A model generated the notes under the pieces. That model worked only from the letters and a program-made list of their open reading frames with translations. It made no database searches and was not told the DNA's origin. The position numbers and the translations under genes are program-made. From Obrimoposthia wandeli (lineage: Eukaryota), in NCBI GenBank assembly GCA_977020255.1, contig CDROCS010002727.1:496001-560000 (forward strand): DNA of 64,000 bases. Reading direction: 5' to 3'. This document shows, piece after piece, positions 342-56,654 of this stretch (positions are counted from its first letter, which is position 1; every line of letters begins with the position of its first letter).

Positions 342-455
342 ACAGACATACCAGAATACCCTTCGAGCGAGTCTAGTCAAGACAGCGAACCGGAAAGTAA
401 CGATACAGAATCAACAGAATCCGAAGATAACATAATAGAGCGATTCGGAAGAACC

Positions 456-2264
456 ATGGAGGTTGAATTCGCTAAAGAAAACAGAAAAAGACAAAACATA
501 GAATTCGTGAAACAGAATATACAAGAAAGACGAATTAAATCTGCAGAAGAGACCGAGTCGGAAGAAGACTCAACAAAGGAACAGACATCAGAGACAAAGA
601 TGAATATTTCTCCAGCAATACGAATGCTGAGAGGGAAGAAACTGGCAAAACTATCCAACATCGACGAACAGATAGAGAAGAGATTAGAAAGACTAAAACT
701 TGAAGAGTCAGAATTATTGCCACCAATGAGCGAGATCATTCCAGATAAGTTATACCTCGGAAATGTGGAAGATGCAACAGATGAAAAGAAACTGTTGGAA
801 CAAGGGATAACATACGTGATCAATGTTACAATGAATCACAAATCACAATATCAGACAATCAGAGCTATGACATTAAGAGTAAAAGACTCAATGGACGCTA
901 ATCTTCTCGAATGGTTCGTAGAAACAAACGAAATACTTCACAGAGAACTCCGAAACCAAGGAAAAGTGTTGGTACATTGTCAGAAAGGAATTTCTCGATC
1001 AGCAACTCTAGTATTAGCATATCTAATAAAGACTAGGCGAATGCAGGTACTAGAAGCGCTAAAATACCTACAGGAAAGAAGAAGTATTGCAAACCCAAAT
1101 CTTAATTTTTTGGGACAGTTGGCAAATTACCAACTTCTGTTGCAAGAACAAAGACGGATGGACGACATTCCTGAGAATCCAAAGGAAAAGAATTTCCTCC
1201 AAGCATTATCGTTGACCGGGTTATTCTTAGCCGGAGTCGACAAAATTACACAGATAATGCCAAAAGTATTTTTATGTCATCCAGGAGATATAGATGCTGC
1301 TGGATTAAAGTTCCACAGTATCAACCGAGTAATCAACATTGTTGAAGTCGGAAACGAGATAATTAGTCTGTGTCAAAATACTGAAGACGACACCACTCGA
1401 TACATACATGCTTCCAATCGAGAGATAAACGATGCACAACAACATCTGACGAAATTGACTCAAACCATCCAAGCCGAAGTCACAGAAGGAAACGGCGTTC
1501 TGATATATCAGAAAAAAGGTACGATGTTAGCGCCTACCATAGGTGTATCCTTGTTGGTAGAGTACCATGGTCACACGCCAGAAGAAGCGATGGTCTACAT
1601 CAAACAGAATAGACCAGATACGGAATTCAAACCGTTACTCGTTCGAGAAATAGAGAAGTACGCCGAAAAGAGGAAGCAACAACGAGAAACAAATGAAGCT
1701 ACAACAACAGTGCCCAGCTTTCAATACCAAAGATTGCTAGCGATAGGCTTGTTAAGTTATCTAATGCCGATAACGGGAGCACAAGAGATAGGCTCCAACC
1801 ACGGAAATAGTTCCTGGTTCAACGAAATCCACAACTACACCATACAGTACCATACGCCGGCACTGATGATGCTATTAGTGTTGTTAGGATTAATTGATGT
1901 ATGGATCATCCGAAAATGTCTCCGATCTATGAGAACCGACAGTAAACGTTTTCAGTTTGTAAAGATGAAAAGACCAAATGGACCGATGAACAAAGTACTT
2001 GTGTATCTAGACGAAAGGATCGAGGATAACATAGTAAATGAAGCGATATTTTACCCACAAAACAGAATACTGAATCAATTCCAAATGGATTACGAAGCTG
2101 ACCGACAGCGCACCCTTGACCGAATATCAACAACATTCGTCGGATGCAAGCGAAGAAAACGAATTGTAAAGGAAATACAAAAAGATGCCGATACAAAAGG
2201 ACCGACGTATATATTCGACGGCGATGTCATCAAAGTACGTGAGTATGGAAGTAAGAATAATTGA
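456..2264 (+). CDS. Tandem dual-specificity phosphatase (one active, one degenerate DSP domain) fused to a membrane protein
   Basis: DSP1: IIPDKLYLGN...VINVT, DSMDANL, catalytic VLVHCQKGISRSATLVLAYL, AL.YL.ERRSIANPNLNFLGQL. DSP2: IMPKVFL...VINIV, VLIYQKKGTMLAPT (no catalytic Cys), EAMVYIKQNRP. Then hydrophobic segments LLAIGLLSYLMPITGA and ALMMLLVLLGLIDVWII. Intronless. Confidence 0.9.
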   Translation: MEVEFAKENRKRQNIEFVKQNIQERRIKSAEETESEEDSTKEQTSETKMNISPAIRMLRGKKLAKLSNIDEQIEKRLERLKLEESELLPPMSEIIPDKLYLGNVEDATDEKKLLEQGITYVINVTMNHKSQYQTIRAMTLRVKDSMDANLLEWFVETNEILHRELRNQGKVLVHCQKGISRSATLVLAYLIKTRRMQVLEALKYLQERRSIANPNLNFLGQLANYQLLLQEQRRMDDIPENPKEKNFLQALSLTGLFLAGVDKITQIMPKVFLCHPGDIDAAGLKFHSINRVINIVEVGNEIISLCQNTEDDTTRYIHASNREINDAQQHLTKLTQTIQAEVTEGNGVLIYQKKGTMLAPTIGVSLLVEYHGHTPEEAMVYIKQNRPDTEFKPLLVREIEKYAEKRKQQRETNEATTTVPSFQYQRLLAIGLLSYLMPITGAQEIGSNHGNSSWFNEIHNYTIQYHTPALMMLLVLLGLIDVWIIRKCLRSMRTDSKRFQFVKMKRPNGPMNKVLVYLDERIEDNIVNEAIFYPQNRILNQFQMDYEADRQRTLDRISTTFVGCKRRKRIVKEIQKDADTKGPTYIFDGDVIKVREYGSKNN

Positions 2265-3984
2265 AACGATGGAAGGACATAAAACATGCTTGTCCGCTAA
2301 AAATGGATTCGGAAAGTTGATGATACAAGGTAAACAGGTACAGTTGATTATCGGAAGAAATGGAATCGAGGAGATGTCAAAACAACGACAGACAACAAAA
2401 CGATCCAATCAGAAACAGATATCTCTCAAACGAATGATAATTAAAACCCTTTGCAAAAGGTCAGTCAAGGCCCTGTGCACCGTTGCACAAGGATTGATCT
2501 ACGGAGTAGTAATTCAATTAGTACTACAAGCCATGCCAACCAGTAAAGCTGAAATGATGACATTATACGAGTATAATCTACATTTGAGAAATCTAGACAA
2601 CACCCTCGAAATAATCAAGACGTCCCACAGTAAAGCCGTAAGGATCATGTGTGTAAAAGGATGTCCAGGACGAATGTGTATAGTTCCAGCGACCGAAATG
2701 AAAACACTTAATGAACATTATGGAGTTAGTATTGTCACATGTGAAGACTACACATTTGGACAAACTAAAATAGTACTTCTCAGTGACATGTCCAACCAAA
2801 GTGCACACAAATTTAAAATATTAACCATCAAGAGTAAAGGGATACCAGCAGTACGTTATGGTATTCTAGAATTGGTTAATCCAATACTCGCACTGATCAT
2901 TGGATTCATAATATTAATATTACTCATCTTGTTTTGTTGTACAAAAATAGAGTTGAGATCAAAAAAGAAACGTCATGATCTCGCAAGACGAACAGGTCAA
3001 ATGAATTTACAAAAATTCAACACAAGTATACCAAGACCACCATTTCTAGATGAACCAGCACCTGAGTACCAGCCAACGATATATGAACATATCGAGGAAA
3101 GACCGTACTATATGAGTAATTTGAGTTGTTTCATTGAAGTTCCTGAGTTTAGGAATCGAACGATCATAGGAATCATGCTAATCATACAAATTACCACTAC
3201 CAAGGCTAGTTATGAGATCATGATCAGTAAATGGAGACAAGACGTAATACGGGCAGTATACATAGAAATCCCCCTACTAAAAACAAATCACGTAGTAGAC
3301 ATTCATCTACAGACGTCAGCAACCGACAATATCGATCAGAAATTGTATGTCATCCGACAGGTCAGAATCAAGATCGACCAAAGTACACCCTACTACAAAC
3401 TGATATTATTCTATCATGAAAGAGTGTTATACCTACGGATAACAATATCAAAGAGAAAGCGGATTATCCAAAGTATCCGAACAAAGTCATTAATATTGCC
3501 TAGAGATGAGCGCATCTGGAAAATTGTCGACAGGATTATGATCACAGGTAGACGACATAAAGCCGTATGGAATTCCGTTAGAATATTTTTCAGATTACTA
3601 GAAACTGACAAAGTAACAGTATCGTGTCCCAATCCAGATGGCGGAATCAGATTCGAAATCCAAAACCAAATGTTAGTACCACATTTTAATACAGAATGTC
3701 TGTGTAATCGAATTCCCAGTAATACTACAGAGACCTCGACCATAATCATGGTAATAACAGGTGAAATATTCTACATAACTCTAAGATACCAGAACCGTCG
3801 ATTTCGTAGATCCGGTATAAGTATCAAACCCAGGAAAACCATTCCCAAAAAACCAATCCTAGTCAAAAAGAAGGCAAAAGTAAACGAAAGTAAACGCCAT
3901 TTTTCAAAAACCGAAAGTGATCAGAACAAAGACAGAAGCGAAAGAAAAAGAGCTCAATTCCAGAAACCAAAGTACAATTATTAA
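2185..3984 (+). CDS. Multi-segment membrane protein of unknown function (accessory ORF)
   Basis: 599-aa intronless ORF. Hydrophobic segments GLIYGVVIQLVLQA, ILALIIGFIILILLILFCC and IIGIMLIIQITTTKA, with a Cys-containing segment between the first two and a basic C-terminus. Confidence 0.7.
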   Translation: MPIQKDRRIYSTAMSSKYVSMEVRIIETMEGHKTCLSAKNGFGKLMIQGKQVQLIIGRNGIEEMSKQRQTTKRSNQKQISLKRMIIKTLCKRSVKALCTVAQGLIYGVVIQLVLQAMPTSKAEMMTLYEYNLHLRNLDNTLEIIKTSHSKAVRIMCVKGCPGRMCIVPATEMKTLNEHYGVSIVTCEDYTFGQTKIVLLSDMSNQSAHKFKILTIKSKGIPAVRYGILELVNPILALIIGFIILILLILFCCTKIELRSKKKRHDLARRTGQMNLQKFNTSIPRPPFLDEPAPEYQPTIYEHIEERPYYMSNLSCFIEVPEFRNRTIIGIMLIIQITTTKASYEIMISKWRQDVIRAVYIEIPLLKTNHVVDIHLQTSATDNIDQKLYVIRQVRIKIDQSTPYYKLILFYHERVLYLRITISKRKRIIQSIRTKSLILPRDERIWKIVDRIMITGRRHKAVWNSVRIFFRLLETDKVTVSCPNPDGGIRFEIQNQMLVPHFNTECLCNRIPSNTTETSTIIMVITGEIFYITLRYQNRRFRRSGISIKPRKTIPKKPILVKKKAKVNESKRHFSKTESDQNKDRSERKRAQFQKPKYNY

Positions 3985-4393
3985 GAGGACAAGAGTGAGG
4001 GGAACGATCCCACTAGATCCCAAACATCATTTCCAATCCAAAATAATAATACCTGTTCCATCAGAAACAAAACACCCAAATCCACGAATTTTTAGAAAAT
4101 CGGACATAATACATGGAAACCGATCAAAACCCATGGAAATGTCATTCGAACCGACAAACAACAAAATGAAGTATGATTATAAATCATCAGATAGCAGAAT
4201 AACAGCGGTCAATGCTCTAATTGGAATGGCCGTAGTGTCAACAGCAGTGGTTCTATTGACAATCGTGTGCGTGAAAGGCAGTCAAGTATGCCCAAGAATA
4301 CGACGAAAATGCGAAGGATTGCGATGCTGTGACACACCCACCATGGAGGAAGTGGAATTGCGACCCTTACCTCCGCCTCCCATCAAGATATGA
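3917..4393 (+). CDS. Small single-pass membrane protein; possibly the frameshifted end of the 2185-3984 ORF
   Basis: TM segment AVNALIGMAVVSTAVVLLTIVCV, juxtamembrane Cys residues and a PLPPPP tail. Overlaps the preceding ORF by 68 nt. Confidence 0.6.
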   Translation: MIRTKTEAKEKELNSRNQSTIIKRTRVRGTIPLDPKHHFQSKIIIPVPSETKHPNPRIFRKSDIIHGNRSKPMEMSFEPTNNKMKYDYKSSDSRITAVNALIGMAVVSTAVVLLTIVCVKGSQVCPRIRRKCEGLRCCDTPTMEEVELRPLPPPPIKI

Positions 4394-4515
4394 TAAGTCA
4401 GAGGAGATTGTAGATAATTAATGTATGAAATATGTAGAAATACCTAGAAGCAATTGTACAAATAGTAGAAATATATAAAACTCATGTAGAAATTAATCAT
4501 CATCATGTATTTAGA

Positions 4516-4815
4516 ATGGCCGAAGAATGCCCAATATGTTTGGAAGATCTAACCGAACGAAGAACAAGACCCGAAACCTGCAACCATTTACACCACGAGG
4601 AATGTTTATCGACATGGATCAGAACTTATGGACAGTTCGGACATCCAACATACCCTTGTTGCCCTGTATGCAGAAGACAATTCGCAAGATTCATCATGTT
4701 AGAACCCAACCAAGAGGATGTATATGTACAAGTGGTATTCTGTTGGAAGAATTTCGGAGAGTGTTGGTGTTATTACTGTTTGTCAGAACGACAAAATCCG
4801 ACCACTTTTGTGTAA
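4516..4815 (+). CDS. RING-H2 zinc-finger protein 1 (putative E3 ligase)
   Basis: CPIC...CNHLHHEEC...W...CPVC (C3H2C3), plus a C-terminal CWKNFGECWCYYC. Confidence 0.9.
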   Translation: MAEECPICLEDLTERRTRPETCNHLHHEECLSTWIRTYGQFGHPTYPCCPVCRRQFARFIMLEPNQEDVYVQVVFCWKNFGECWCYYCLSERQNPTTFV

Positions 4816-4875
4816 ACATCACACAATCACCAGTCCTCAATCGAGCCCAAATTCAACATCAACCCTCTCACAGTA

Positions 4876-5181
4876 ATGTCTGGAGAATGTTCCATCTGCT
4901 ACGAGAGCATCGTGGACTTCTACACCAAGCCCAACAACTGCGACCACCTTTTCCACATCGAATGCCTCGAGACGTGGATCCCCATCGCCAACAGCAACAA
5001 TCCCCTCGACTTCCCAACCTGCCCGATGTGCAGAGCGACCTTCTCAGTGCACTACGTGTACAACCAGGACAGCCTCCAAGCAGTGGTACCCATAGTACAC
5101 TGCTGGAAAACAATCTGCGATTGCTGGTGCTCGTTCTGCGTAGAGGAGCGACGCACAGGCCAGCCCAACTCCCAACAATAA
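4876..5181 (+). CDS. RING-H2 zinc-finger protein 2
   Basis: CSIC...CDHLFHIECLETW...CPMC, plus a C-terminal CWKTICDCWCSFC. Clear paralogue of RING1. Confidence 0.9.
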   Translation: MSGECSICYESIVDFYTKPNNCDHLFHIECLETWIPIANSNNPLDFPTCPMCRATFSVHYVYNQDSLQAVVPIVHCWKTICDCWCSFCVEERRTGQPNSQQ

Positions 5182-5535
5182 TCGAAGGTAACTTTCTGAC
5201 TTTGAACGTGACATCATGAACTACCCTGTGTATCGCATACCGCGATAAATTAGCTACCATAATTGTAATCATAATTGTATAATCTTGTGGAAACTGTAAA
5301 TTGACCATTACCATTTTTATGTATGTTGTTTAACTGAAATTGTAATTATTATACTGAAATTCTAAAAGACAATTTTTTTTATGCCTAGTGTGAGTGTGTA
5401 AACATGCCTAAAATCGGAACAAAACTCGGTAGGATTAAAAAACTAAGGGTTCGTTTTGAACTAAAATTTTAACCTTATAAATTAACGACGAAAACAGTTG
5501 AACCCCAAGTTGAAAGGAATTATTTTCTTGTGCAG

Positions 5536-6033
5536 ATGAAGTGTTCAGTCTGCCTGGAGAAAATTTGGACGGCATCGGCATCCCCTGTCGGCTGCCGTCA
5601 CAAATTCCACGAGTCGTGCCTCTATACTTGGGCCCGACTTCGACCCGAAGGCCACGTCACATGTCCGTTGTGCCGTGCTCCCTTCGCGGAGTGGACACTA
5701 CAATGTCGCGGACGCCACAAGGGCACTCATTCGCTCACCAGCTGTATTGGTGGCGAACATTGCCAATGCCCCGACTGCATCGCGCGCCGTCGCGACGCGA
5801 AACTCGCCCTCCGAGAGAAATGGCGATCAACCCGTGACTGCCGCTCATGGCAACGTGGTCGCCAAATATGGATCCAGAACCGCGGGGTCCACGGGAGATA
5901 CACGACCCTCTTCCACCCCAATCAGCACCTCAGCATGCCCCAGCAGATGGCCCTGTTCAACGGCAGGACTCCATCATATCCGGACCTACCACTGGAGCAG
6001 GTCTTGCTGTTCTTGAGAGACAGAAACAATTGA
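5536..6033 (+). CDS. RING-H2 zinc-finger protein 3 with a basic C-terminal extension
   Basis: ATG at 5536. CSVC...CRHKFHESCLYTW...CPLC, plus CIGGEHCQCPDC. Confidence 0.88.
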   Translation: MKCSVCLEKIWTASASPVGCRHKFHESCLYTWARLRPEGHVTCPLCRAPFAEWTLQCRGRHKGTHSLTSCIGGEHCQCPDCIARRRDAKLALREKWRSTRDCRSWQRGRQIWIQNRGVHGRYTTLFHPNQHLSMPQQMALFNGRTPSYPDLPLEQVLLFLRDRNN

Positions 6034-19480: not shown

Positions 19481-20937
19481 CTGACGAACAGATATTATCA
19501 TATATAGCATTAACAAAATTTTAATTAAATTCCTTTTCATGTTTACAAAGCAAGTCAGTGATGCTGATTTAAATAAATGTCTCGTTTTATTGTAGCGTCC
19601 GTTATAAATAAAGTTATCCTAGGTTACCGTTTTTTCTTTCAAAATTTGTGGAAAAAATGCATATACTTAATTAATACGCGTGTATTGTTTTTTAAATATG
19701 TCATGGAAATAACATTGAATAAACTATGTACAAACTCAATATCATATTTTAATGTCACTGTTTGTCTATCATTTTATCCAATTATTATTTGAATACCTGT
19801 ACATAAGTATCATGTAGTATTTCATGAATAAAAACCTGACTAGAGCTTTGAGGACAGTAAACGAATTATTAAGTGTAAAATTTTATTTTCACGACTTTCA
19901 ATATAACATAGTAAATATATCTTTTAGATTCATGCAGGTGATTTTTGTTTTATATTTAGATACAATCTTCATTTATTGTGTTAAGACTTATTTTAAATTA
20001 CAAATAAACAATTGATGCCATAATTATTTTTCGTGGAAATTACTAGAAAAGCGACAAAAATAAAAATAATTACTAAAATACGACCGATTTACAAAGAACA
20101 AATATAAATATATATTCAAATTCAAATACAAAAAGTTTACTTTATCATCGTTTTTGTAGATCGAATAGAAACGATTGTGTGCACGGGGAAAGAAAGTATT
20201 CTGACGAGACCATTACTGAATTTTAAATGTAAATAAACAGCATAATCACCCATAAAAAATATGTTAAAAGAGCAATGGTATGATTTTTTAAAAGTATTTT
20301 AATATAATTTTTGTCTTATTTGCAAATCGGTATTATTTAGTAATTATTTTTATTTTGATGCTATTTGATGCTATTACAAAGGACTTAGATGGGCCTGATA
20401 TTGTAAATAAATACGAGTTTATCGACAGAATCCGAGAAAATATTAATAAGATATATGCTGAATCTAAGAGGATAGGTTTGCTCTATGCCAAAGAAAACAC
20501 CTATCAAATGTGCATTTTAAAACTTATTCTAAACTGTGTTATATATATATATATTTAGTGCAATACATTCTAGTTATTCAAAATATTTTTGTAAAGAAAG
20601 TAGGTAGATATGTCCCTCCTGATGTTACAATGAAGCATGAAGTAGAGATTATTTCAACATCTAGTAAATTATGACTTGGTTCTACAAAACTTTATTGAGA
20701 ATCACAGTACAAAAATATGATACTATTTTCATAATCATTAAATAAACATTATAAAATATTGATAAACACACGAACAAATTATATTTTGTTACACTGAGTG
20801 ATAAATTAATTATAAAAATATACATTAACAGCAAAAGTTAGGAATCTGCCGAAACAAACATTCATTAATAAACTATTTGGTTGATAAACAGACAATGGAG
20901 TCCTAAAATTCCAATGATAGATCCCTTCGAGAACGTC

Positions 20938-21475
20938 AGAAGTATAAAGTGTCGGTTCTAAAACAATAGCACACAAAGCCCCCCCCCGAACAAGGCACAA
21001 AGAACAAAGCACATCTGGAATTCGCTTAGTCATACAGATGTGCTTTGTTCCTTGTGCCTTGTTCGGGGGGGGGGGCTTTGTGTGCTATTGTTTGAGAACC
21101 GACACTTTACGTTTTGAAATTTGATTGGTCTTATGCGTCACTTACGATTATGTAGGTTAATATTCTGTAACATTAAGTATATAGTTCAAAAATTTTAATT
21201 CAAAATTAAAAAATTAAATTAAAAAATTAAAAAATTAAATATTGAAATTAAAAAATAAAATATGGAAATTAAAAAATTAAAATTTTAATTCAAAAATGAA
21301 ATATGAAAAAATTAAAATTTTGAAATTAAACACAATTTACCGTCCCAAATTTTTATTTGCAACTATTTAATTTACTTAGTACTGCGACCTCATTCCAGGA
21401 GTTAGACTGCCCCGCATAACCGGACCGCTATCGCAGTTTTTATCATAAGAAACGTTATTGTTTATAGTAGGAGTC
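20938..21475 (+). repeat. Left TIR: 165-bp hairpin (20945-21109), AT-rich tract and 55-bp structured motif
   Basis: Reverse complement of 30439-30970, with a few substitutions and indels. Confidence 0.95.
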
Positions 21476-21530: not shown

Positions 21531-22310
21531 TTATAAGCGAACTTGTCCATCAGTAATTTTCCAGATTGGTTTATGAAGACCTGTACAGTTGATTTTGTAT
21601 CCCTGTATTGAAATGACGATCATCCACTTGAGTCCAGTTCCCATATTGTCAACATTAAAGTCGTGATCTCGCATGAAAAGATTAGGATCAGCTCGAATTA
21701 TTATATGATTCCCAACTATAATGTTGAGATGCATCGACGCGAAAGTTTTGTTAAGATCATCAATATCTGACGGATTTAATCTATGTATCTTGAAATCGTA
21801 TTTTGACTTATTCAGAGCCACCGGAAACATGAATCCATATATGATTGGAGTCTTCAAAAAATTCATTTGCCAGTTATAAAACATAACCGGCTTGGTGTAC
21901 TTCAAATTGTTAGACTCAAATATTACACCTGATGGTCTATTGTTAATGAACGGTTTCTTATGTTTGTGTGTAGAAACTATATCATCAATAAAGAGATCCT
22001 CATTTGTTGCTTGCTTCTCAAAATTGATAGTCTTGGTTTGTTTGTGGTTGTTGCTTGTCATAGTTTGCTTCTTTGGTTTTGATATTAAAACTACATCATC
22101 ATCATCGGTATCCACATCTGTGTCTGTAAGCCTTGTTGGTGGGGGCTTCTCGAACTTAAGAGATTTAGTTTGTTTAGAGTTCATATCAAAATAATGAATT
22201 CTATACCAAAAGTGGTAGCTTATATATATCATCATACTCGATTCTGATTGGATAATCTTTAGCTTAAAAATTTTATATATAGATTGGGTTATTTCCATTA
22301 ATTCAATCAT
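21531..22310 (-). CDS. Element ORF A, unknown (probable start MNSKQ at 22183); possible ssDNA-binding/OB-fold protein
   Basis: Intact ORF with an acidic/basic N-terminus and a beta-rich C-terminus (KWMIVISIQGYKIN...KPIWKITDGQV). The function is only a guess. Confidence 0.55.
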   Translation of the reverse strand: MIELMEITQSIYKIFKLKIIQSESSMMIYISYHFWYRIHYFDMNSKQTKSLKFEKPPPTRLTDTDVDTDDDDVVLISKPKKQTMTSNNHKQTKTINFEKQATNEDLFIDDIVSTHKHKKPFINNRPSGVIFESNNLKYTKPVMFYNWQMNFLKTPIIYGFMFPVALNKSKYDFKIHRLNPSDIDDLNKTFASMHLNIIVGNHIIIRADPNLFMRDHDFNVDNMGTGLKWMIVISIQGYKINCTGLHKPIWKITDGQVRL

Positions 22311-22800
22311 GAATCTTGCAAATATTAATTATAAAGGTAAAGTTAAAGGAGACATCAGTCACTTACCCTTCAAAACCGGGAAACCATGTCAGTACGTGCA
22401 CAGGTGTAAGGATTATACCCTTATAATCTTCCGTTCAGGTATGTTTTTATGTTAGTTAGTTAGTTATTTATTATTAGGAGCATGCAGGATAATGGGTTGC
22501 AAGAAACATATTACTACAACTATGCTCAAGTGTCCATTTAGAATAAAGATTGATCGTATTCAATCAGTAACGGTTACTGTCGATTTAGGTAAGAAGGTGA
22601 ACCTATACAAGTTGTCTCAAAAGTGTGGAGCTGCATGCATGTTCGAACCTGAGTTGTTTCCTGCTTTGAGGTTTACAAAACACAATCCTCTGTGCGTCAA
22701 CATATTTGCAAGCGGGAAAGTGGTCATACTCGGTCTCAAGGATTTGGATTATCACTTTGATGTGACTTTGATAATAACTGATATTCTACTTTTGATATAA
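22309..22800 (+). CDS. Minimal TATA-binding-protein-like gene, two exons (22309-22438 and 22478-22800)
   Basis: Removing a 39-nt GT..AG intron gives YTLIIFRSGACRIMG (TBP repeat 1, cf. ALIFSSGKMVCTG). Repeat 2 reads FEPELFPAL...VNIFASGKVVILGLK (cf. YEPELFPGL...LIFVSGKVVLTGAK). Confidence 0.88.
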
Positions 22801-22842: not shown

Positions 22843-23121
22843 ATGCTAGTTGATTATATACTTCATTATACAACTGTTGATGATGTTTTAGTTAGACGAA
22901 AAGTAGGTTATTCTAGAATGAAAGTTTTACACTGGAAATATAGACCGGAGGCTAAGGAAGCTTTAGGTACAGTTGTTAAAATTATTAAAAATCGACGTAA
23001 ACGTAAAGCAAGTGAAGCAGCACAAACGGTTGAACCCGAAACTAAAAAGCAAGAGGGTAGTGGTAGAAAGAAAGCATCTAGTATAAATAAACGAAGAAAA
23101 CAAGGTACAATATTTGCTTAA
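22843..23121 (+). CDS. Small basic protein, candidate virion core/DNA-condensing protein
   Basis: Arg/Lys-rich 92 aa immediately upstream of MCP, containing QEGSG (GxG, a possible protease site). A syntenic relic lies at ~57510-57780. Confidence 0.5.
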   Translation: MLVDYILHYTTVDDVLVRRKVGYSRMKVLHWKYRPEAKEALGTVVKIIKNRRKRKASEAAQTVEPETKKQEGSGRKKASSINKRRKQGTIFA

Positions 23122-23123
23122 TA

Positions 23124-24386
23124 ATGGCTTGTGGTAAATCTGAATTATGTATTTTTGATCGAGCTTTGCCCCAGGTAGTTGTAAATAATGGTAGCTTTGA
23201 AGATATATATCCAACAAACAATATTACCGGAACAAGAACATCAGAGATTCTGTTTAAAATCCAAGTATCAGATATTGAGTACTTAGATTTGAATGATACC
23301 TTGTTGTTTGTGAAAATAAAAGTAACGAAAACTGATGGTACAGAAATAGCTGTTGCAGATAATGTGGTCCCATCAAATTTCTTGATGCATTCCCTATTTA
23401 AAAGCATAGATATAACAATGAATAATACTGTAGTATAAACCCATCCTCAATATGCACAAAAAGCTATGATTGAAACCATACTAAACTATAGCACAGACAC
23501 TAAAGACACTTGTTTGTCGAGTATAGGTTATGATGATGATGAAGATAAGCGTAAAGGTTGGGCTGCTCGCTCAAAAGAAATTGACTTGTGTGGGACTCTT
23601 CGATCTGATATTTTTGAGCAACCAAAGTATCTCTTACCTGGTGTGTCTATCATGGTAAGACTTGTACCTAATAAATCTATGTTTAGTCTGAACTACGGAA
23701 CGACTCTATCGCGAATCATATTTATTGAAGCTAAACTTAAAGTCAGAAGAGTCAGAGTTGAGAATGATGTTTTAATGGGACAAAATATTGGTCTTGAATC
23801 TAGGAATGCTGTATATCCCTATACTCACAGAAAGCTAATGTATCATACCTTAGCCATCGGTTCTACGAGTTTTTACAAGGATCAAGTGTTTGATGATGAA
23901 CAATTGCCTAAATTTGTGTTGATTACGTTGCAAGCAGGTGAAAAACTTATCGGTAATGGTGCTACAGACTCTTCAACATTCGATCATTCTAATGTTAACA
24001 CTATCAGTCTTGCTAGAAACAGTGATTTTAACGAATCTTACAGTACAAACTTGAAACAGGTGAAACCACCTTTGCATATGTCCAATCTATCATTAGAAAT
24101 ATGGGTAATTTGGATAAGAATATAAACAATGGCGTATCACTGGATGAATTCAAAACCAAATATCCATTTTCCACGTATCACTGGATGAATTCAAAACCAA
24201 ATATCCATTTTTCACGTTTGTTTAGCCCCTGACTTTGATATCACGCAAAACCAATTAGCAAAACAGGGTAATTTACGCCTTGACATCAAGTTTCACAAGT
24301 CATTAACAGTCCCAACAAACGTACTGATTTACGGGATTTTTGATTCTGAGTTTGAAATAACTAAAGGCCGACGTGTGATTGTATGA
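23124..24386 (+). pseudogene. Maverick major capsid protein (double jelly roll), disrupted
   Basis: CGKSELCIF...EILFKI...EYLDLNDTLLFVKIKV...HSLFKSIDIT...IETILNY...DIFEQPKYLLPGV...KLKVRRV...LPKFVLI...FTFVLAPD...GNLRLDIKF...VLIYGIFD. In-frame TAA at 23436, frameshift near 24052, 41-bp duplication at 24133-24216. Confidence 0.9.
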
Positions 24387-24767
24387 AGTGAGTTTTTTTA
24401 ATTTATGTTTTAAGATTTTATTAACAACAAGTAATGTTCAGGTGAATGAAATAACTAGTTTGCTGCTCGGACCGCGATTTAAGGGTGTATACCCGTTGGA
24501 AAAAATCCCAACATTAACGCCTAGATGATATATTGTCAATACACTGACCTCAAATCTTCCTGGAGAACACTGGATTGCGTTATTCGTGAGACAGAATTCT
24601 GTACATGTGTATGACCCTCTTGGAGTATACTATCCGGGAAAACTTATCAAGCATGTAGAGTCTCAAGGAAAACATGTATATTACAACAAAATTCGTTCTC
24701 AAAACCCACTGACTACTAATTGCGGTCCACTATGTATCTTATGGTTGTATGATCAAACTATATAAAT
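24383..24767 (+). pseudogene. Adenain-like cysteine maturation protease, spliced (exon 1 24383-24387, intron 24388-24431)
   Basis: MNNVQVNE...FKGVYP...IVNT...PGEHWIAL...YDPLG...QNPLTTNCGPLC gives the catalytic H, D, Q and C. One in-frame TGA. The ATG overlaps the MCP stop codon. Confidence 0.88.
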
Positions 24768-25182: not shown

Positions 25183-28100
25183 ATGTCAAAAATTATTGTT
25201 GCTTTCAACAGCAATAAAAGATGGACAATGAAGCCTGTAGTGGCTGATGATGATGTCGACTTGGATGCGACACCTGTTAAGAAAGGTAATTTCAATTATT
25301 ATTATTTTATTCTTTAATTTAATTTAGCAATGCGGAGTGTCACACCACCAATATCAATTGCGCCATGGCTATCAACAAAATATGATGCTCCTACTAAGAA
25401 AAGAAGCCGAAAGCAGTCAATTTCTGATGTTGAAAAGAAGAAAATGTCAAAAGTTTTTTTATCTTCTGAGAAATCTGCTCAGTCTTTACTTCCTTCTTCT
25501 TCTTCATCTTCTCATTCTCATGTTTTTCCTCCATATGACAATCATTTAAATAAACCTTTTGGGGATATAAGGGATATAAACTCTAATTCTCCCGACTGCG
25601 ATAGCTGCCCGGTAACGCGGGGCAGTCTAACTCCTGGAATGGGGTCGCAGAACAAGTTAATTAAATCAAGAGGTTACCCCTTACTTTTTAAACCAGGGAC
25701 ACCTGTTAATTCGATAGAAAATTTCGACGTAAATGAGATATACTCGGGTTTTGAAATTATCCCGTTTAAAAAATATTTTAATCAGTTAAAGAAAGTTAAA
25801 AATCAAAATATTGATTTAAGTAAACTGAAAACAGAAGGTAGGAAAGGTAAACGATTTCGTCAGAAGCTGCGTAGATTGAGAAAACTACCAGCAGATATAA
25901 CAATATTTGCAAATTTATTAGGGTCTTGCAAACCCATTAATATTAGTCCAAGTCTGAAAATTACAGATCTGGCAAATAAATTATATGAAGTCTTTGGGAC
26001 TGATCAAATTTATGTTAACCGTAATGGCATGCCCTTTGAAAGGGAAGCTATTATCGGTGATGTTTTACATGAGGGGGCTATTATCCATGTATACCCTAAA
26101 CTTCGTGGAGGAAGTAACTTATGTACATTGTACAAGTATTGCACAAACGTTAATCATGGAATAGAATGTCATAGTGTAATGCTTAAATATTATAAATTTA
26201 AAAGCGGTTTTATTTGTCCACATTGTGATGTGTTATATTGTATTGACTATCAAACATTTTATAATGATCATAAGGATCATCTGACGTATTTTAAGTCTAA
26301 AAAGTTAGCATACAAACGTAAAGTAATGAGAGTACCAACAATAGACAACAATAAAATAGCAAAAACTAATAATTTTAATGAAGAGTTTGATGTGGTAGAC
26401 TCGTGGGAACCGGATAGTGTTGTAGAAATTGATACTTATCCTGAAGTTGTAGAAATTATTGAGCCTTTAACGTCTAATGAAATCTTAAATAATAAAAATA
26501 TTGATGAACTTATAGATCAGGACGAGTTTATAACAGAAAATGATTTTTTCGACTCACTCCTAACTATTACGGATGATGACTTTGATAATATTGTTACAAT
26601 TAATTCAGATAATACATTAACTTTTAACAATCAAATAGGAGGTGCAATTCAATCAAACCTTGTTTTTGATGTTAGTGGATTAAACATGCTTAAACTATAC
26701 ATTAACGATACTATGCTAACTGAACTTACTAGCAGTATAGATGTGTTTAGTCCCTGTAAAATACAGTTTGGTGTTGAAACCGAATTTGTCAATAACGAGG
26801 GTCAACATAAAACATGGCATGTAAGCTTTAAAGCAAATATTTTTGAACAAGATTTTATCACTACAAGAACAGTTGAGCTCAACAATAAAATTGAAATTTA
26901 TAAGGATATGAGTTCTGGATGGACAGTATTTAAAATTATGTTGGAATCCTTTAAATTTACTGCACTTTCAAACGTAGCAGGATCATCATTTATAAAAACC
27001 CCGGTTGCGCTTGCTAAAACACTATCTATAGTGAACGTAAATAATACTGATGATCAGTGTTTTAAATACGCTGTTCTCAGTATCCTACACTATAAAGATT
27101 TCAATCGAAACAGACAAACAGTTGAAAACTATAATGATTATTTAAATGAACTTATATGCGAGCCTGGTCCTATGAGGATAGACTGCATCAAGGCGTTTGA
27201 AAAACTCAATAATATAGCGATAACAGTATTCTCCTATAAACCTACAAAGGTAGAGCCTCATAGTAGTCATCTAGTGTTTAAAAACCCAGATGTTAATGTT
27301 ATTTATAGAACGAGTCTTAAGCAGTGCGAAAAAGTAGTAAACTTGTTGCTGTTGGAACAGAGCGGTAATTATCACTATACTGGAATTACAAATCTGAAGA
27401 CTTTTAAATACTCAAAAATATAATGTGCGTCTCTTTTGGTGTGAGAAATGTCTTTTTGGATTTCGAACCACGATTTCATATGACAAACACAGGGCACATT
27501 GTAATATTAATACAGATTTAACAACCTTGTTTACAATGCCTAAAGAGATCAAGTGTCAGTTTTCTGACTGGTCTAAATCTATTGCGCCACCATTTGTTGT
27601 ATACGCCGACTTTGAGTCAATACTCGAGCCACATAATACTTTCAAACACATTCATAAACCAATATCTATAGGGATGATTTTGAAAAACAACACTAATAAT
27701 TCAATACAATATTTCAGTTATTACGTTCTGCAGTGTGCTAAAAACTTTGTAGATAAATTAACTGAGTTGATAAATGGTGAAGTGGCAGATTTTTGGGTAA
27801 ATAGTATTAATGTTCCTATGGTTTTTACTAATAATGACATGTTGAACTTTAGAGATTGCACTAATTGCTATCTTTGTAAAAAATTAAACGATCGTATGGT
27901 TAGAGATCATGATCATATCACGGGTAAATACTTGGGTGCGGCATGCAACAAATGCAATTTAAGTCGCAAGTTTGCAAAGAGACCGGTTTTACCTGTGGTG
28001 TTTCATAACCTTATGGGTTATGACATACATCATATTTTAAAATATGCCGACTTGAAAGGTAAATTCTTTTCAATTATCCCTAAATCAAGTGAAAAGTTCA

Positions 28101-29910
28101 TGTCCCTCCGTATAGAGATGAAGAGGGGGACATTGAAATTCATTGATTCATACCTTTTTACAACGTCAAGTCTTGAATCCTTAGTTTCATACTTGCCAAG
28201 TTGTCCTTATACTACACAATACCTAAAACCTAATATTGCAACAAGTAAGGCGGTATTTCCATATGAATATATTAGTGGTGTTGATAGGCTTATGGAGACG
28301 CAGTTACCCGCTAAATCTGAGTTTCCTTCTCGAGTCACTGATCAACAATATAATGAAGCCCTAATGATGTGGACTGTATTAGGGTGTAATACTATTAAAG
28401 ACTACATGCTTGAGTATATGAAACTTGACGTGTATCTCTTATGTGATGTTTTTGAGACCTTTAGACAGAAAGTAAGGGATGATGATAATCTAGAGGCGCT
28501 CAATTTCTTTAGTATCCCTGGTCTCAGTTGGGCTAGCGCATTAAAAACATTAGAGTATGATGTGGATTTATTGCATGATCCCGAAATGTATAACATGTTT
28601 GAGGCAGGGATACGGGGAGGGATGACTTTCATCAATAAACATTACGTTAAAACAACAGATGAAACATTCCTCCTATACATTGACATAAATAACCTATATG
28701 GCTGGGCCTTGAGTCAACCGTTACCACATACAGATTTTACATGGGTATATGACGGTTTTGAAGCGATAATTGAGCTTATAACTGAGAGGGATATTCACGG
28801 TAATATGCAGGACTTAAGTCTTAAAGAACATGGATACTTGTTGGAAATTGATTTACACATATACCCATCAGTATTCATGATAAACTTGATGACTTACCGA
28901 TTGCGCCTAATAGAGAAATCCCTCCCGGCTCAAAAGCTTCAAAGCTGTTGATGACCCATGAGGATAAAAATAATTACATCATACACTCACAACTACTACA
29001 ATTTTACTTGTTTCTGGGTGCAGAAATTAAACAAGTGCATAGAGCAATAAAGTTTCATCAAGCTCCTATATTTAAAACATATATTGATATCAATAGCCGG
29101 AAACGGGCAGAGGGTACTACTACATTTGATAAAGAGTTTTATAAACTCAAAAATAATTCAATATATGGTAAGATAGTGGAAAATCTTAAAAAACGTAAAG
29201 ATATCCGTCTTACCAAGAATGATCGTCAGTTTACTAAACTTGTTTCAAGCCCTTGGTTTAAGAAGCATACCCAAATAACCGACAATCTCAATCTTTTATT
29301 TATGCAAAAGAAAGAAATTTGTCTGGATCGACCATCATATATTGGTCAAGCTGTGTTGGACTTATCTAAACTACGTATGTACCAACTACAGTATAGTGAT
29401 CTTGACCGGTATCATAAGCAATATCATTGTGATATCAACATAGTTGCAATGGATACAGACTCGTTTTTCTTAGAGTGTAAGCATATAGATAAAGATGTCC
29501 TCTTAAAACAAATGATTAAAGATCAGATGTTAGATACGAGTAATTACCCGATCACACATGAGTTATTTAACGATTCTCATCGAAATGTGATTGGAAAGTT
29601 TAAAGATGAAAGCAAGGGGACAGTGCTTTATGATGAATGGGTATTTCTGAAACCTAAATGCTACTCATTGAAAACGAGTATGAGGGCTAAGGGTATCTCC
29701 CTTAAACAAACCGAAATCAGACATGAGCATTACATAAAGTGTTATGTTGATGATGAAATTATAACTGCCGGTCAGACACGTATTTTATCTCGTAATCATC
29801 AATTATTTACAATGTATAATGATAAAATTGCGTTAAGGTGTTATGACGATAAAAGGGTTAGGCTTGAGAAAAACAAATCCGTCGCATATGGACACTATAG
29901 TCTAAGATAG
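25183..29910 (+). pseudogene. polB: Protein-primed family B DNA polymerase polyprotein with an N-terminal ubiquitin-like domain; two frameshifts
   Basis: ATG 25183 joins ORF 25330 through a 42-nt intron (25286-25327). Motifs: SSGW...GSSFIKTP...DQCFKY, DHDHITG...AACNKC, FHNL.GYD, FIDS, FPYEY, YMKLDV, GIRGG, YIDINNLYG, KLKNNSIYGK, MDTDS, GKFKDE, KPKCY, RAKG, DDKR. Frameshifts near 27410 and 28868. Confidence 0.93.
25897..26112 (+). other. Ubiquitin-like domain (72 aa) ending in LRGG, inside the pPolB ORF
   Basis: ITIFANLLGSCKPINISPSLKITDLANKL...GAIIHVYPKLRGG follows the length and hydrophobic pattern of ubiquitin (MQIFVK...TLHLVLRLRGG). Confidence 0.75.
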
Positions 29911-30438: not shown

Positions 30439-30970
30439 GACTCCTACTATAAACAATAACGTTTCTTATGATAAAAACTGCGATAGCTGTCCGGTTATGC
30501 GGGGCAGTCTAACTCCTGGAATGAGGTCGCAGTACTAAGTAAATTAAATAGTTGCAAATAAAAATTTGGGACGGTCAATTGTGTTTAATTTCAAAATTTT
30601 AATTTACATATTTCATTTTTGAATTAAAATTTTAATTTTTTAATTTCCATATTTAATTTTTTTAATTTCCATATTTAATTTTTTAATTTTGAATTAAAAT
30701 TTTTAATTTTTAAAATTTTTGAACTATATACTTAATGTTACAGAATATTAACCTACATAATCGTAAGTGATGCATAAGACCAATCAAATTTCAAAACGTA
30801 AAGTGTCGGTTCTAAAACAAGGCACACAAAGCCCCCCCCGAACAAGGCACAAGGAACAAAGCACATCTGTATGACTAAGCGAATTCCAGATGTGCTTTGT
30901 TCCTTGTGCCTTGTTCGGGGGGGGGGGGGCTTTGTGTGCTATTGTTTTAGAACCGACACTTTACACTTCT
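30439..30970 (-). repeat. Right TIR with hairpin at 30798-30964
   Basis: Reverse complement of the left TIR; hairpin loop tatgactaagcgaattc. Confidence 0.95.
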
Positions 30971-31331
30971 AACGTCACCTTTTTTTACTTCATTTAATAC
31001 GTACAAGTCAAAAATTGAAACGAAAATTTTCACTAAACGACCTCCTCAATATATCCCAGTACGAATGATATTTGCTCTCGACTAACCCTCTTTATCCTAA
31101 ATCAATCTCCCAAACAATGAAATTATTTCCACAAAAAAAGTCGTAATTAGTCAAATTTAGGTCAAAATCATTGAACAATTTTATTTTTTAAATAATTTGG
31201 ACCTATTTGAGAACACTTAAAAGGTTTCAACTATAATATATATCTTGGATCCTAAAACGCATCTAGATGGACTGTGTATATTCTATAATTGGTGTACAAT
31301 AAACGGAGTAATCAGAGCAGACAAAACTCAC

Positions 31332-51758: not shown

Positions 51759-54700
51759 TGTGGTGACTTAATAAAAAAAATGAATAAAAAGTGGTAGAAA
51801 TGATGATGTGTATGATGGTAATAGTAATTCCTAAAATAAAATGTTAAAAAAAGAAATAAAAACTAATTTATTATAATGCTTAATTTGCATTATGTTATTG
51901 ATCAATATGGATGTTGGAATTAGGAGAATCCCGTTGTTAATTTAATTAGCAGAAAATCGGAGAACAAGTCAGTTTAAAAATAAAATCGACAACAAAATCA
52001 AAGAACAGCCAAACAACCAAATCCAACAACAATCGTCCGTCCAACAACAAGACAAACTCTCACAGCATCATTTGTAGTGATAAATAAATACATCCTTTAT
52101 ATCTGATATCATTTAATCATATAAACAAAAAATCTACAATATTTTGGTGCCTTAACAAAACGACAACTACTCAACCATCCAACACAACTTCTCGTCATAC
52201 CGTTAAGGTCCAGAATCGGACAAATTTAATAAAAATAATTGGCTATATTTATAGTCCTGGCCAAGGACATTTCGTAATCTTCAAAGATTAAAATAAATTA
52301 AATTACTAAAAAGGGAATAATCTAAGAAAAAATTTAAAATTAAAAGAAATGGTAATTTAATTGACCTCATGTGACTGCTGATTCAACAGCATAAATAGTC
52401 ACATGAAACACCACAACTTACCCAATCCAATCCAATAAGTCGAACAGAAGAGAGGATCACACATCGGAAGAGAGCTTGTCAGAAGAGGCCGATACAGAAG
52501 AGAGGAACACACAGTCAGTAAGAAGTGGATTTTCCAATTTTGGTCGCCGTTCATTGGCCAAGGAAATTATTATAAATGGAGCAACTGGAATTGTACACAA
52601 ATATCGAATAATTAAAGACCGAACTTTCCCACGAGAGGAAAGCTCCAAGCAGTTACAACAAGAAAATGACTCGGACGAACCGGGCAGATCAATTACACAC
52701 GGCGAGTAGTTGATTTATTTATAAAATCATATAGTTTAAACGTAATTTTTTGTAATTATCCTGAACACAGACTATTATTTAATTTAGTTAAAATCCTAAT
52801 TGTGCACATAGAACTATCTTGAACATGGAGAGCTTATTGTTGATTAATCGAGGAACATCAGGAGAAAATACATTAAGCCTGAAACAGGCCCAAGCCTTTT
52901 ATAATATCATTTTCCCACCTTAAAATTAGCCTGAACGGCACATCATATTGGCCCAGCTACTTCTGGATATAATTTGGACAGAGAGTACGAGACTCCTTAT
53001 GGTATTATAAACTGATCTTTTTAGTACTCATATTAATTACTTATATTGTAAGTTTGATTTGTTTGAATAGGCAATATCCTGAATTCATACAAACCGATAA
53101 AGGAACTCACAAAAACACAATATCCAAGAAATAATTCACCACAACCAAAACATACCCATACACACAACAAAACCATCCACTCCAGATATACATCACCATA
53201 TTTCAATACAAACAACAATCACACATTGCACATACGAAAACGATATAATATGCTATTACCATAAAACATACGAATCCCGAGCATACAAATGCGAAAAACC
53301 ATGTGCATATTAAAAAAACACATGAAACCAGGTTCTTTCGCACCACATTACACATTAATAAATGCCATTTTCAAGGTGCACCCTTCAAATACACCATACA
53401 GCTTTCTTATAGACTCAGGCGCTGCGATTCCTTTGATACGAAAATCAATTTGCTCACAACATAAATAAAGGATAAATAATACAAACGTCATCCTCATAGC
53501 CGCGAACAATACAAAAATAAATACTTATGGTGAAACAAAGTTGAATCTCATCATAGATGACATACCATACCACTGGAATTTTATAATAGCAGACATCAAT
53601 CAAACCATACTAGGATCAGATTTTTAAGGAAACTTCCACTTACTAATTGACTGCCACAAAACAATAATACCACGACACACGATACACACTAACAACATTT
53701 ACAAACCAACACAGAATAGAACATTCAATTACAAAAGCAAACCCACAAACATTTCACCAATCCAAAATACTTACAAAAATAAACTCATACATAACTTACC
53801 AATTCAAAGCTCAACAACACCCACAACACAGAAGAAAAAAAATACAACTACACACAAAATAGTAACTACAAGTTATCCATGTCATACAAGAGTACGACTA
53901 TTACCAACATATAAATTAACAGGTGCAAAAGACACATTCAACAACCTCATAAAAGATAACGTTATCAGACCATCAGACTCACCATGGTCATCAGCCCTCA
54001 TGATATAAAAGAAATCATCAGTCGAATGGCGTTGATGCAGAGACTAACGTCTTTTTAATACATCAACTACCCCAGACTCCTATCCATTACCACTCATCAA
54101 CGACATAACACGAAGAATGGGAGACACGATCTTTTCAAAATTAGACCTAAAAAGCGCATAGCATCACATTCCAGTAGACACAGCAGACATTAAAAAACAA
54201 CCATAATAACACCGTTGGTTTTTTCGAAACACGGCATACAACCCAATGAGAACAAAATAAAAACAATAAAGTAATTTCCATCACCAAACAACTAAGAGGA
54301 TTTTTAGGAATGATAAATTTTTACTATAAACATATAAAAACTGCGCTCACATCTTACACTTAAACGAAATAATCAAAAATAAACACAAAACGAAAATTAA
54401 ATTAGACCCCCAACAAATGAAACATTTTGATAACACCAAAAGACGCACTTCTTACAGCCACAACACTAACATACCCATTGACAGACACTAAACTTACCTT
54501 AACCACAGACGCATCAAACACAGCAATAGGAGCAGTTTTGCACCAAACTGACAAAGACAACAATATCATTTTCTCACAAAAACTGAAGGTTAACCAAATC
54601 AAATACTCTACATACGACAGAGAACTTCTCGCCATCCACCAAGCTATAAGACACTTCGAAAACATACTAATTGACAAAACATTCGACACATTCATCGACC

Positions 54701-56654
54701 ACAAGCCACTCATACATGCATTCACAATGAAAAACCCTTCACCTCGACAGTCGAGACAACTCAATTACATTTCACAATTCAACACATCTATAAATTATAT
54801 TCCAGTCTCATTCAACATAACAGCCGAATCTTTATCGAGACCACCTGACACAATCAATAATATAGAACAACTCTTCGAAAGGCACTAAATAAACAATAAA
54901 CAAAACATCAACGAACTTTCAATATTACAAACTCAAACGGAATATGGTATGATATGACAACTCCAGGACTGATCAGAACTATTCTACCAAAAGAACTTAG
55001 ACCGAAATACATTAAACACTACCACAATACTCATCGCCGAGGAATCAAAGCTATACTCGATATTGTTAGACAACATTACATTTGGAAAAACATATGAAAA
55101 GACATTCAGAATTACGTCAAATCATGTATACAATGCAATCTTTATAAATCCCTAAAAACATGCAAAAACACAAAAATTACGCATCACATGCGATACACCT
55201 TTTCACACAATCCCCGTTGATTTAGTAGGAACGTTACCTTTACATAACAAATACTCAGACTTATTAACAATGATAGACAACAACACAAGTTGGTGCACAG
55301 TCAATCCTATTAAAGAAACATCTGCCAAAACAATAATAAACAAACATTGGTTTACAATATACGGATACCCATTCAATATAATCTCAGACCAAGGCAGACA
55401 ATTCATAAGTGATACCTTTAATGATTTTTGCTACATACATAACATCAAACATACAACTACCACTACTTACAACCCACAATCCAACGGAAAAATAGAAAGA
55501 ATGCACCGACGCATTAAGAAAAGCATAGCTTGCTACAAAAAAAACACAAACCTGGCCAGAAAACATAGACATGATGGGAATACGTAATACACCACACAAA
55601 CAAGACAACAGAAGTTCAACGAACACAACACAATCCACGAGTAAACTACACCAAAACGAACAAACTAAGCCTCATACCCATCCTTAAATACAAACAAGCT
55701 TACATAACACTAAACAATTGGAACCAAAATACGAAGATCCATACACCATAATGAAACAAAATAACAATACAACATTAATCAATATAAAACCAAACCCGAC
55801 ACTAATAAACAACCGTAACGTCAAAATAGTCTCACACACCAACAAAATACAAAATTTAAAAACAACACTGAAGCAATAAACCCTTAAAACCATTTTTGTG
55901 GAACAGGATAACCACTATAAAAAACTCACTTCTTATCCAACCCAAACAACCATAAGAACTCTCAAAAACAACGACTGTGGATAATCCCACAATAACCTAT
56001 AACTGACTCACCCATAATAATAACCTTAAAAGCTCTCAAATTCGAAGCACAATTTTTTCGACACCCACACCTCTTAATGCGTTTCAATGTTCCTTATTTC
56101 AATATACTTCTTAATTCGTTTCCTTGTTACTTACACCATGTTCCTATTTATTCTCTCGTTTCACTCCTTCTCTGTTACTCCGTAACTTAGGGGGGAAGTT
56201 AATGTTGTGACTTAATTTCCAAATTGTTAATAAAATCAAATAAAAATTAAGTTAATTAAATAAAAATAAAATTGAATAAATAGTAGTAGAAATGATGATG
56301 TGTGTGATGGCAATAGTAATTCCTAAAAGAAAAATGTTAAAAAAATTAATAAAAAAACTAATTTATTATTATGCTTAATTTGAATTATGTTATCGATCAA
56401 TATCGATGTTGGAATTAGAAGAATCCCACTGCTAATTTAATTAGCAGAAAATTGAAGAATTGTCGGTTTAAAAATAAAATCGACAACAAAATCAAATACC
56501 CAAAACAACCAAATCCAACAACAATCGTCCGTCCATCAACCAAACAACAAGACATAATCTCACAACATCATTTCCTTACTTCATTTGTAGTGATAAATAA
56601 ATACATCCTTTATATCTGATATCATTTAATCTTATAAATCTAAAATCTACAATA
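51759..56654 (+). mobile_element. Degenerate Gypsy LTR retrotransposon with both LTRs (51759-52141 and 56203-56654)
   Basis: Homologous LTRs; PBS-like tggtgcc at 52145; PPT agggggggaag at ~56189-56198; candidate TSD CGTT. Protease FLIDSGA, RT SPWSS...DSYPLP...FSKLDLKSA, RNaseH TDASNTAIGAVL...DRELLAI, integrase SCIQC/PQSNGKIERMH. Confidence 0.92.

Follow-up and report, generated by a model that had tools for sequence, protein, structure and literature searches.

Genes and features of the locus

The window, that is, the whole 64,000-nt stretch of DNA that we analyzed, carries a Polinton/Maverick element between positions 20938 and 30970, with the AG...CT ends, inverted repeats at both termini and the 6-bp target site duplication (TSD; exact, 20932-20937 versus 30971-30976) by which such elements are recognized (Table 1). 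Its terminal repeats are identical at 514 of 527 aligned bases, and in the family as a whole the TSDs are exact in 38 of 39 paired copies, the remaining one having 1 mismatch. Full-length copies measure ~15 kb, and the window copy is a 10-kb derivative that has lost, through a ~4.9-kb internal deletion, the IAP-like gene, the ATPase, the integrase and a probable minor capsid region. In a full-length copy, which retains these genes, the integrase (rve, E 1.1e-11) comes with a chromodomain, the packaging ATPase is A32-like (Pox_A32, E 2.6e-07) and the IAP-like accessory gene has a BIR-RING organization. The capsid and protease genes are probable assignments, made from matches below the cut-off.

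The element had been called protein-primed in the initial annotation, and its polymerase bears this out, since it combines a PF03175 domain with terminal-protein-like and OTU domains. The region ahead of the exonuclease was folded from a 31-sequence alignment (pLDDT 88), and the model suggests a terminal-protein-like domain, with an invariant Ser beside Gly ahead of its last strand, followed by an OTU protease; both look intact. The Z values are middling taken alone, and the order of the two domains adds support: a terminal protein-vOTU architecture in the same order is described in the accessible text of bioRxiv 10.1101/2024.03.18.585575. The best viral matches of this region are adintovirus polymerases, and a Foldseek search against the PDB returned nothing at E 0.001. 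The endonuclease VII-like insertion in the polymerase has at best E values of 0.28 and 4.2 against the sequences of solved structures, and its nuclease activity is putative; as such insertions are frequent among related polymerases, it is not tied to the stem described below. No Pfam match to HUH/Rep or to an SF3 helicase was found in 30 ORF scans covering full copies and the window, or in 9 window ORFs, several small ORFs being without any match. Of note, the terminal-repeat segment of 71 nt that lies in the 5' part of the polymerase gene is found there in other copies too.

Other repeats lie elsewhere in the window. An intronless, strongly A-skewed ORF cluster at 342-6033 (dual-specificity phosphatase, RING finger) shares 88-90% identity with part of another contig and is a different large repeated element. 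The A-skewed region at 52000-56000, with a reverse-transcriptase RNase H fragment at 54421-54888, is a retroelement remnant. Two pairs of distant inverted repeats (6238-6482/63752-64000 and 7813-8167/61857-62209; 250-360 bp, 80-89% identity) are probably dispersed repeats.

Table 1. Features of the Polinton/Maverick copy in the window
Feature	Positions	Strand	Remarks
Left TSD copy, 6-bp	20932..20937	.	sequence
Left terminal inverted repeat, ~540 bp	20938..21475	+	
Terminal tail, unpaired, AG-start end motif	20938..20944	+	7 nt here, 6 nt family-wide
Left hairpin, outer arm, 73 nt	20945..21017	+	C9 run at 20979
Left hairpin, loop, 17 nt	21018..21034	+	common orientation
Left hairpin, inner arm, 75 nt	21035..21109	+	G11 run at 21065
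Motif just inside left hairpin	21116..21133	+	loop-like direct repeat
A/T-rich tandem tract within left terminal repeat	~21176-21330		
259-aa ORF	21531..22310	-	no Pfam match
TBP-like (half-TBP-like) accessory gene	22456..22800	+	PF00352, E 2.6e-13
Junction of ~4.9-kb internal deletion, approximate	22940..22950	.	versus one full-length copy
Probable major capsid gene, fragmented	23124..24386	+	weak Pfam Capsid_N in other copies, E 0.03-0.05
Probable adenovirus-type protease gene, fragmented	24379..24765	+	Peptidase_C5, E 0.0047, below cut-off
Protein-primed DNA polymerase B (pPolB)	25330..29910	+	PF03175, E 6e-20; three frames, breaks near 27,400 and 28,900
71-nt copy of terminal-repeat segment in polymerase 5' region	25595..25665	+	repeat comparison
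Terminal-protein-like domain, little-finger/PAD fold (model)	26641..26973	+	Z 8.0, rmsd 2.6, 93 aligned to 4ir1_F
OTU-like protease domain (model)	26995..27396	+	invariant Cys and His; Z 8.4, rmsd 3.5, 102 aligned to 8c83_x
Endonuclease VII-like (HNH) insertion in polymerase	27848..27961	+	PF02945, E 2.2e-05
Right terminal inverted repeat	30439..30970	-	
Right hairpin	30798..30964	-	inner arm 30798-30869, loop 30870-30886, outer arm 30887-30964
Terminal tail, unpaired, 6-nt	30965..30970	-	
Right TSD copy, 6-bp	30971..30976	.	sequence

Hairpin geometry

The initial annotation had reported a long hairpin just inside each terminus (20945-21109 and 30798-30964), and both sequence and folding confirm the arms, the 17-nt loop and its mirrored orientation. 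The right hairpin has arms of 72 and 78 nt with C8 and G13 runs, and its loop is oriented as the left one relative to its own terminus. Folded as DNA, the left hairpin reaches -88.5 kcal/mol (z -20.7) and the right one -90.3 kcal/mol (z -19.3), values equaled by none of 200 shuffles in either case. The 7-nt offset from the end that had been noted holds for the left end of this copy, where it stems from a substitution seen in 2 of 187 termini; the right end has a 6-nt tail, as does the family, in which the pairing base stands at position 7 in 176 of 187 termini. In line with the earlier proposal that each strand can fold locally, the predicted structure of each single strand is a stem with a short single-stranded tail left over. 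This 6-nt 3' tail is unpaired on both strands, and the 3' end is therefore not base-paired for direct priming.

The loop (21017-21034) and the motif just inside the hairpin (21116-21133), which contains what we take to be a reverse CCAAT box, form a direct near-repeat with 13 of 18 positions matching in the window copy, 8 of 18 in an older subfamily and, among the young variants sampled, 16 of 18 in the commonest one. The lengths of the C and G runs in the two arms are only weakly correlated (r 0.22; equal in 17 of 86), and since homopolymers are error-prone, they were excluded from the evidence.

Conservation of the stem in the family

In this AT-rich genome of 1.35 Gb, presumably that of an invertebrate to judge by the relatives of the polymerase, a census with exact patterns anchored at the inner edge of the stem recovered at least 1,891 ends (the loop has the common orientation in 1,833 and is reversed in 58; reversed-pattern controls gave 0), a lower bound because an exact match was demanded. 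The family thus has at least ~900 copies, and the palindrome is present in essentially all of them. Many polymerase copies are 98-99% identical and the copy number is very high for a Polinton, which apparently reflects a recent or ongoing burst.

These counts also bear on whether the hairpin was made by assembly or sequencing, a concern raised at the outset. Long-read sequencing and assembly are prone to fail at palindromes, and the outside short-read data, two runs of one sample, possibly come from the assembly's own sample. Against this stand the at least 1,891 ends with differing flanks and TSDs, the subfamily changes mirrored on both arms, and the short-read contigs that span arm, loop and arm, although the orientation of the loop is not readable from them. 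We therefore regard the hairpin as real and an artefact as very improbable indeed. Two marine sequencing runs gave no matching records.

The arms of the stem change together between subfamilies. At three columns, both arms are changed in 14, 12 and 8 of 175 termini, with single-arm changes in 3, 3 and 6; at a fourth, the figures are 4 and 1. These co-changes represent a handful of inherited events and not independent counts. In an older subfamily, a 5-nt insertion in one arm has its mirror image in the other, one stem mismatch is fixed in 17 older termini, and the stem is retained in every subfamily sampled.

Two sister Polinton families of the same genome have no terminal 165-bp stem and carry instead a hairpin with arms of ~30-35 bp located 170-250 nt inside, from which it follows that the terminal stem is dispensable for Polinton replication generally. 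They have in common with the hairpin family a short motif and a C-run near the end. A genome search with the polymerase protein recovered only the hairpin family, the sister families being recognized beside one fetched copy, where at least two related Polinton families adjoin it in tandem. The repeats of these families open with another AG motif and contain the shorter internal hairpin as well as palindromic tandem units.

Outside this genome, a scan of viral contigs with the C-terminus of the polymerase found no relative. Eighty metagenome contigs encode related polymerases (30-45% identity), mostly as fragments without both ends. Palindromes of at least 84 nt within ~250 nt of the end occur in 8 contigs and were rejected as evidence, since two look like fold-back assembly ends, one of them running into the polymerase gene, and breakage of assemblies at palindromes is uncontrolled. 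In four metagenome contigs, hairpins near related polymerase genes resemble the arms of the family by a short motif at the base of the stem, an uncontrolled likeness that may be due to chance.

Loop orientation and coupling of the two ends

All 58 reversed matches (3% of the 1,891) were read: 51 are true termini, five are fold-back junctions and two have an unclear outer end, and four additional reversed termini lie outside the pattern matches. Reversed loops occur in eight loop variants, each with the sequence of its own subfamily, which shows that loop inversion has recurred. In trees built from 49 left and 47 right ends, with 10 termini left out for an unreadable loop, an unassigned side or a short sequence, 7-8 changes of orientation are needed, of which supported branches force at least four and at least three, respectively; the right-end tree contains small clades made up of reversed loops only. 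The reversed loops are known from the assembly, and some single ones may be artefacts. One terminus has, after its reversed loop, a leftover piece of the loop in common orientation, the record of an incomplete template switch.

The orientations of the two ends are coupled. Among the 29 elements with both ends read, matching TSDs and at least one reversed loop, both loops are reversed in 10 and one loop in 19, against 0.45 both-reversed elements expected under independence at 3.1% (P 1e-11). The partner end is missing or unmatched for 16 of the 55 reversed termini, and entering all 16 as mixed still gives a P of 2e-9. This excess, spread over six variant backgrounds, indicates that one end is copied onto the other, and that this most likely happens before integration. 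Indeed, conversion after integration is insufficient to explain the coupling, since private point changes are rarely common to both ends (2 of 32 cases in 39 pairs, versus reversal of both loops in 10 of 29 elements; Fisher P 0.009). The paired reversed ends differ at 0-7 of 220 bases, so the both-reversed elements are mostly not duplicated contigs. In one of them, the left ~2.2 kb has been replaced by an inverted copy of the element's own right ~1 kb: a left end rebuilt from the right end, and a direct trace of end-to-end copying. As for the 19 mixed elements, they could be chromosomal inversions; in some, the two loops are also of different variants, which suggests that the ends came from different parent molecules.

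Solo hairpins and fold-back products

Twenty-nine sites consist of terminus, arm, loop, arm and terminus only. Fifteen were read: eight lie within an exact TSD and one within a near-exact TSD, five have an inverted host flank and one has neither. Such solo hairpins, ~180 bp within the original 6-bp TSD, would pass for a MITE, and recombination is expected to produce them, since two palindromic ends provide it with direct repeats.

At the five inverted-flank sites, the host flank reappears in inverted orientation over 19-270 nt. Four of these sites, together with one further site, continue into the element interior (flank 13-270 nt across the fold-backs), an arrangement that requires a polymerase to have folded back at a chromosomal stem. 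Five other junctions point inward, with interior sequence flanking the loop on both sides over extensions of ~15 nt to ~4 kb; one of these extends ~250 nt before a normal terminus and an intact TSD. The stem thus folds and self-primes in cells. Since the inward and host-directed classes are symmetric, the products are best read as chromosomal accidents and not as obligatory replication intermediates. An interpretation of the five inward junctions as viral dimer bridges was rejected in view of the mirror-image fold-backs into host DNA. In a separate copy, one end retains only ~18 terminal bases, joined to interior genes within a matching TSD.

Possible roles of the terminal palindrome

Taking together the stem geometry with its 6-nt tail, the family-wide conservation, the co-change of the arms, the protein domains, the isomer counts and the coupling, we infer a role in initiation and propose that, in replication by terminal-protein priming and strand displacement, the palindrome serves as a fold-back origin or as an end cap, and not as a primer; we would give this proposal an even chance. 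The 3' end of the displaced strand would snap back into an origin duplex carrying the 6-nt tail as single-stranded template, which would permit initiation without waiting for the 15-kb panhandle and shield the free end. Occasional switching of the polymerase template between the arms would invert the loop and even out the arms. One end would then be copied onto the other before integration, a step supported by the statistics of coupling and perhaps akin to panhandle repair, and the integrase would insert the repaired product. That the reversed loop never takes over may mean that the loop contains an oriented signal, or that the family has expanded from few master copies. Once the element is integrated, the stem would generate the solo-hairpin deletions and fold-back rearrangements whose products are observed. 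Several points weigh against the origin or cap. End-to-end copying means that the panhandle route is in use, and a local origin is then unneeded; the 97:3 bias could be due to a small number of master copies, with no selection involved; initiation might equally well be hindered by the stem; and template switching alone can make stems, compensatory changes and loop inversions, as described in the accessible text of PMC8794818.

That last point leads to the alternative to which we attach the most weight, albeit clearly less than to a fold-back origin: a stem that is a tolerated by-product with no role of its own, formed when one ancestral template switch duplicated the terminal 75 bp in inverted orientation, with the loop left behind as a direct repeat of the inner motif, and kept matched in its arms by later switches. 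The likeness of loop and inner motif (13-16 of 18) is what a switch and return would leave, two sister families do without the stem, the mechanism is a published one (PMC8794818, in the part accessible), and switching is frequent here, as seen in the five inward junctions and in the 19-270 nt of inverted host flank at 5 of 15 solo-type sites. Yet this likeness is lower, not higher, in the older subfamily (8 of 18), the stem has been kept in all sampled subfamilies despite the deletions it causes and it ends exactly at the 6-nt tail, and the loop is held at 97% in one orientation over eight variants despite recurrent inversion. The bias in loop orientation would be accommodated if the stem were a signal for excision (through recognition of a cruciform or single-strand hairpin), for integrase loading or for packaging, and if binding to the loop were oriented. 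Its position beside the end targeted by the integrase would fit, as would the drift of loop and inner motif toward each other in young subfamilies. We nevertheless consider such a signal unlikely, because both-reversed elements have integrated with correct TSDs, and because the copy whose stem is extended by 250 nt and the copy reduced to ~18 terminal bases at one end also lie within exact TSDs, even if these two were possibly altered after integration.

About as unlikely is true hairpin priming, in which the 3' tail is trimmed, the stem primes and the closed end is resolved by the endonuclease VII-like insertion or the integrase. Recurrent loop isomers are in keeping with it, the five junctions in which the loop is flanked on either side by interior sequence are what a self-priming product looks like, one of them being extended by ~250 nt up to a normal terminus and an intact TSD, and the polymerase does carry the insertion. 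Such insertions are common in related polymerases, however; fold-back toward the host, which only chromosomal events give, is as common as fold-back inward; the terminal-protein and OTU domains look intact; and a Rep/HUH match is absent among the 30 ORF scans. Orientation-conserving resolution is seen at the left end of minute virus of mice, and resolution of this type would stay compatible with hairpin priming. The model has been proposed for palindromic virophages/PLVs (bioRxiv 10.64898/2026.07.28.741278, accessible text), and the AAV ends to which it would be likened are random and independent according to the accessible text of PMC11575299, whereas here they are coupled and divided 97:3. 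A compound of the two modes, to which we would grant somewhat more, though still little, credence, is a hybrid replicon, in which a Polinton with terminal-protein priming has palindromic ends that isomerize and self-prime while it replicates outside the chromosome, their resolution falling to the nuclease domain of its polymerase; the ~900 copies would record the intermediates. If this were true, the element would be a living intermediate that links DNA virus genomes primed by protein with those that end in hairpins.

The initial annotation had likened the hairpins to those of parvoviruses, had set them against panhandle pairing of the terminal repeats and had suggested looking for flip/flop inversion of the loop. 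Loop isomers do exist (58 of 1,891 reversed), in a proportion of 97:3 and not 50:50. A likeness in mechanism is not supported: no HUH/Rep or SF3 helicase match was found among the ORFs scanned, the ends are open and of integrase type with a 6-bp duplication, the loops are biased and the ends coupled, and as far as sequence tells, the hairpin is not parvoviral. The opposition to the panhandle stands in part, in that the stem folds locally, and fails in part, in that end-to-end pairing or copying still occurs, as attested by the coupled loops and by the left end rebuilt from the right.

The family offers a natural labelling experiment, an invertible 17-nt marker at each end of ~900 young copies, and any model of replication must explain a reversal rate of 3% together with coupling in about one third of the affected elements. 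For the host, nearly 2,000 long palindromes carry a cost, since they seed solo-hairpin deletions, the analogue of solo LTRs for a DNA element, and fold-back inversions.

Comparison with known systems

Polinton replication has been modelled as single-strand excision, panhandle formation and protein priming and, to our knowledge, has not been observed to date. Adenovirus replicates by terminal-protein priming and strand displacement, re-initiates on a panhandle and copies one end onto the other; we know of no long internal palindrome in its terminal repeats. Terminal-protein priming and end-to-end copying are thus the likeness to our element, and the long internal palindrome, present only here, is the difference.

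The closest relatives in organization are the Polintons/Mavericks (Polintoviricetes), of which the vertebrate set is characterized in the accessible text of PMC8097293. They share the 6-bp TSD, the AG...CT ends with a short repeat-like motif, a size of ~15 kb, a range of terminal repeat lengths (46-1,447 bp) that includes ours, the rve integrase with chromodomain, the A32-like ATPase and a pPolB with TP-OTU and endonuclease VII-like insertion. The hairpin family is unlike them in the 165-bp palindrome of each repeat, in its TBP-like and IAP-like genes and in its ~900 or more copies, against the low numbers typical of the vertebrate set; the words palindrom and hairpin are absent from the main text of that paper. 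The accessible text of PMC6431247 likewise has nothing on terminal hairpins of Polintons, and in the accessible literature on Polintons and flip/flop the words occur only within a poxvirus reference. The literature searched contained no report of loop isomers in an element with a pPolB, Repbase and most subscription journals being outside its scope.

Among viruses, AAV has long fold-backs at both ends, of similar size (a 125-nt palindrome) and with two loop orientations (accessible text of PMC11575299). It differs in its Rep nickase, not found here, and in a T-shaped structure in place of a simple stem-loop with the end outside the stem; each of its ends adopts flip or flop independently of the other, as opposed to the coupled 97:3 ratio here. 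Bidnaviruses possess a Polinton-derived pPolB and terminal repeats, but these repeats are stated not to form parvovirus-like hairpins, and the viruses are non-integrating (accessible text of PMC4061559). In Streptomyces telomeres, as covered by the accessible text of PMC5449611, terminal-protein-primed linear DNA has a single-stranded 3' end that folds at palindromes and is used both as the template for priming and as a substrate for repair. There, several short palindromes are involved and Tap/Tpg patch the ends after internal initiation, whereas our element has one long stem and, presumably, the end-initiated pPolB synthesis of Polintons; the parallel is therefore offered as an analogy only.

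The presence of such palindromes in related elements was partly anticipated by a report on endogenous virophages/PLVs of Halocafeteria seosinensis (bioRxiv 10.64898/2026.07.28.741278), the accessible text of which describes palindromes in terminal repeats, preferentially with non-pPolB replicases, and proposes hairpin priming. As in our family, the palindrome lies in the terminal repeat beside the TSD of an rve-integrating element. The example shown measures 52 nt, against 165 nt here, where the palindrome stands 6 nt inside the end of a pPolB element; the section on palindromes does not report loop isomers, arm co-variation or solo hairpins, and the supplements may list pPolB cases. Our results extend this 2026 report to a polymerase-B element and argue against reading a terminal hairpin as a primer by default.
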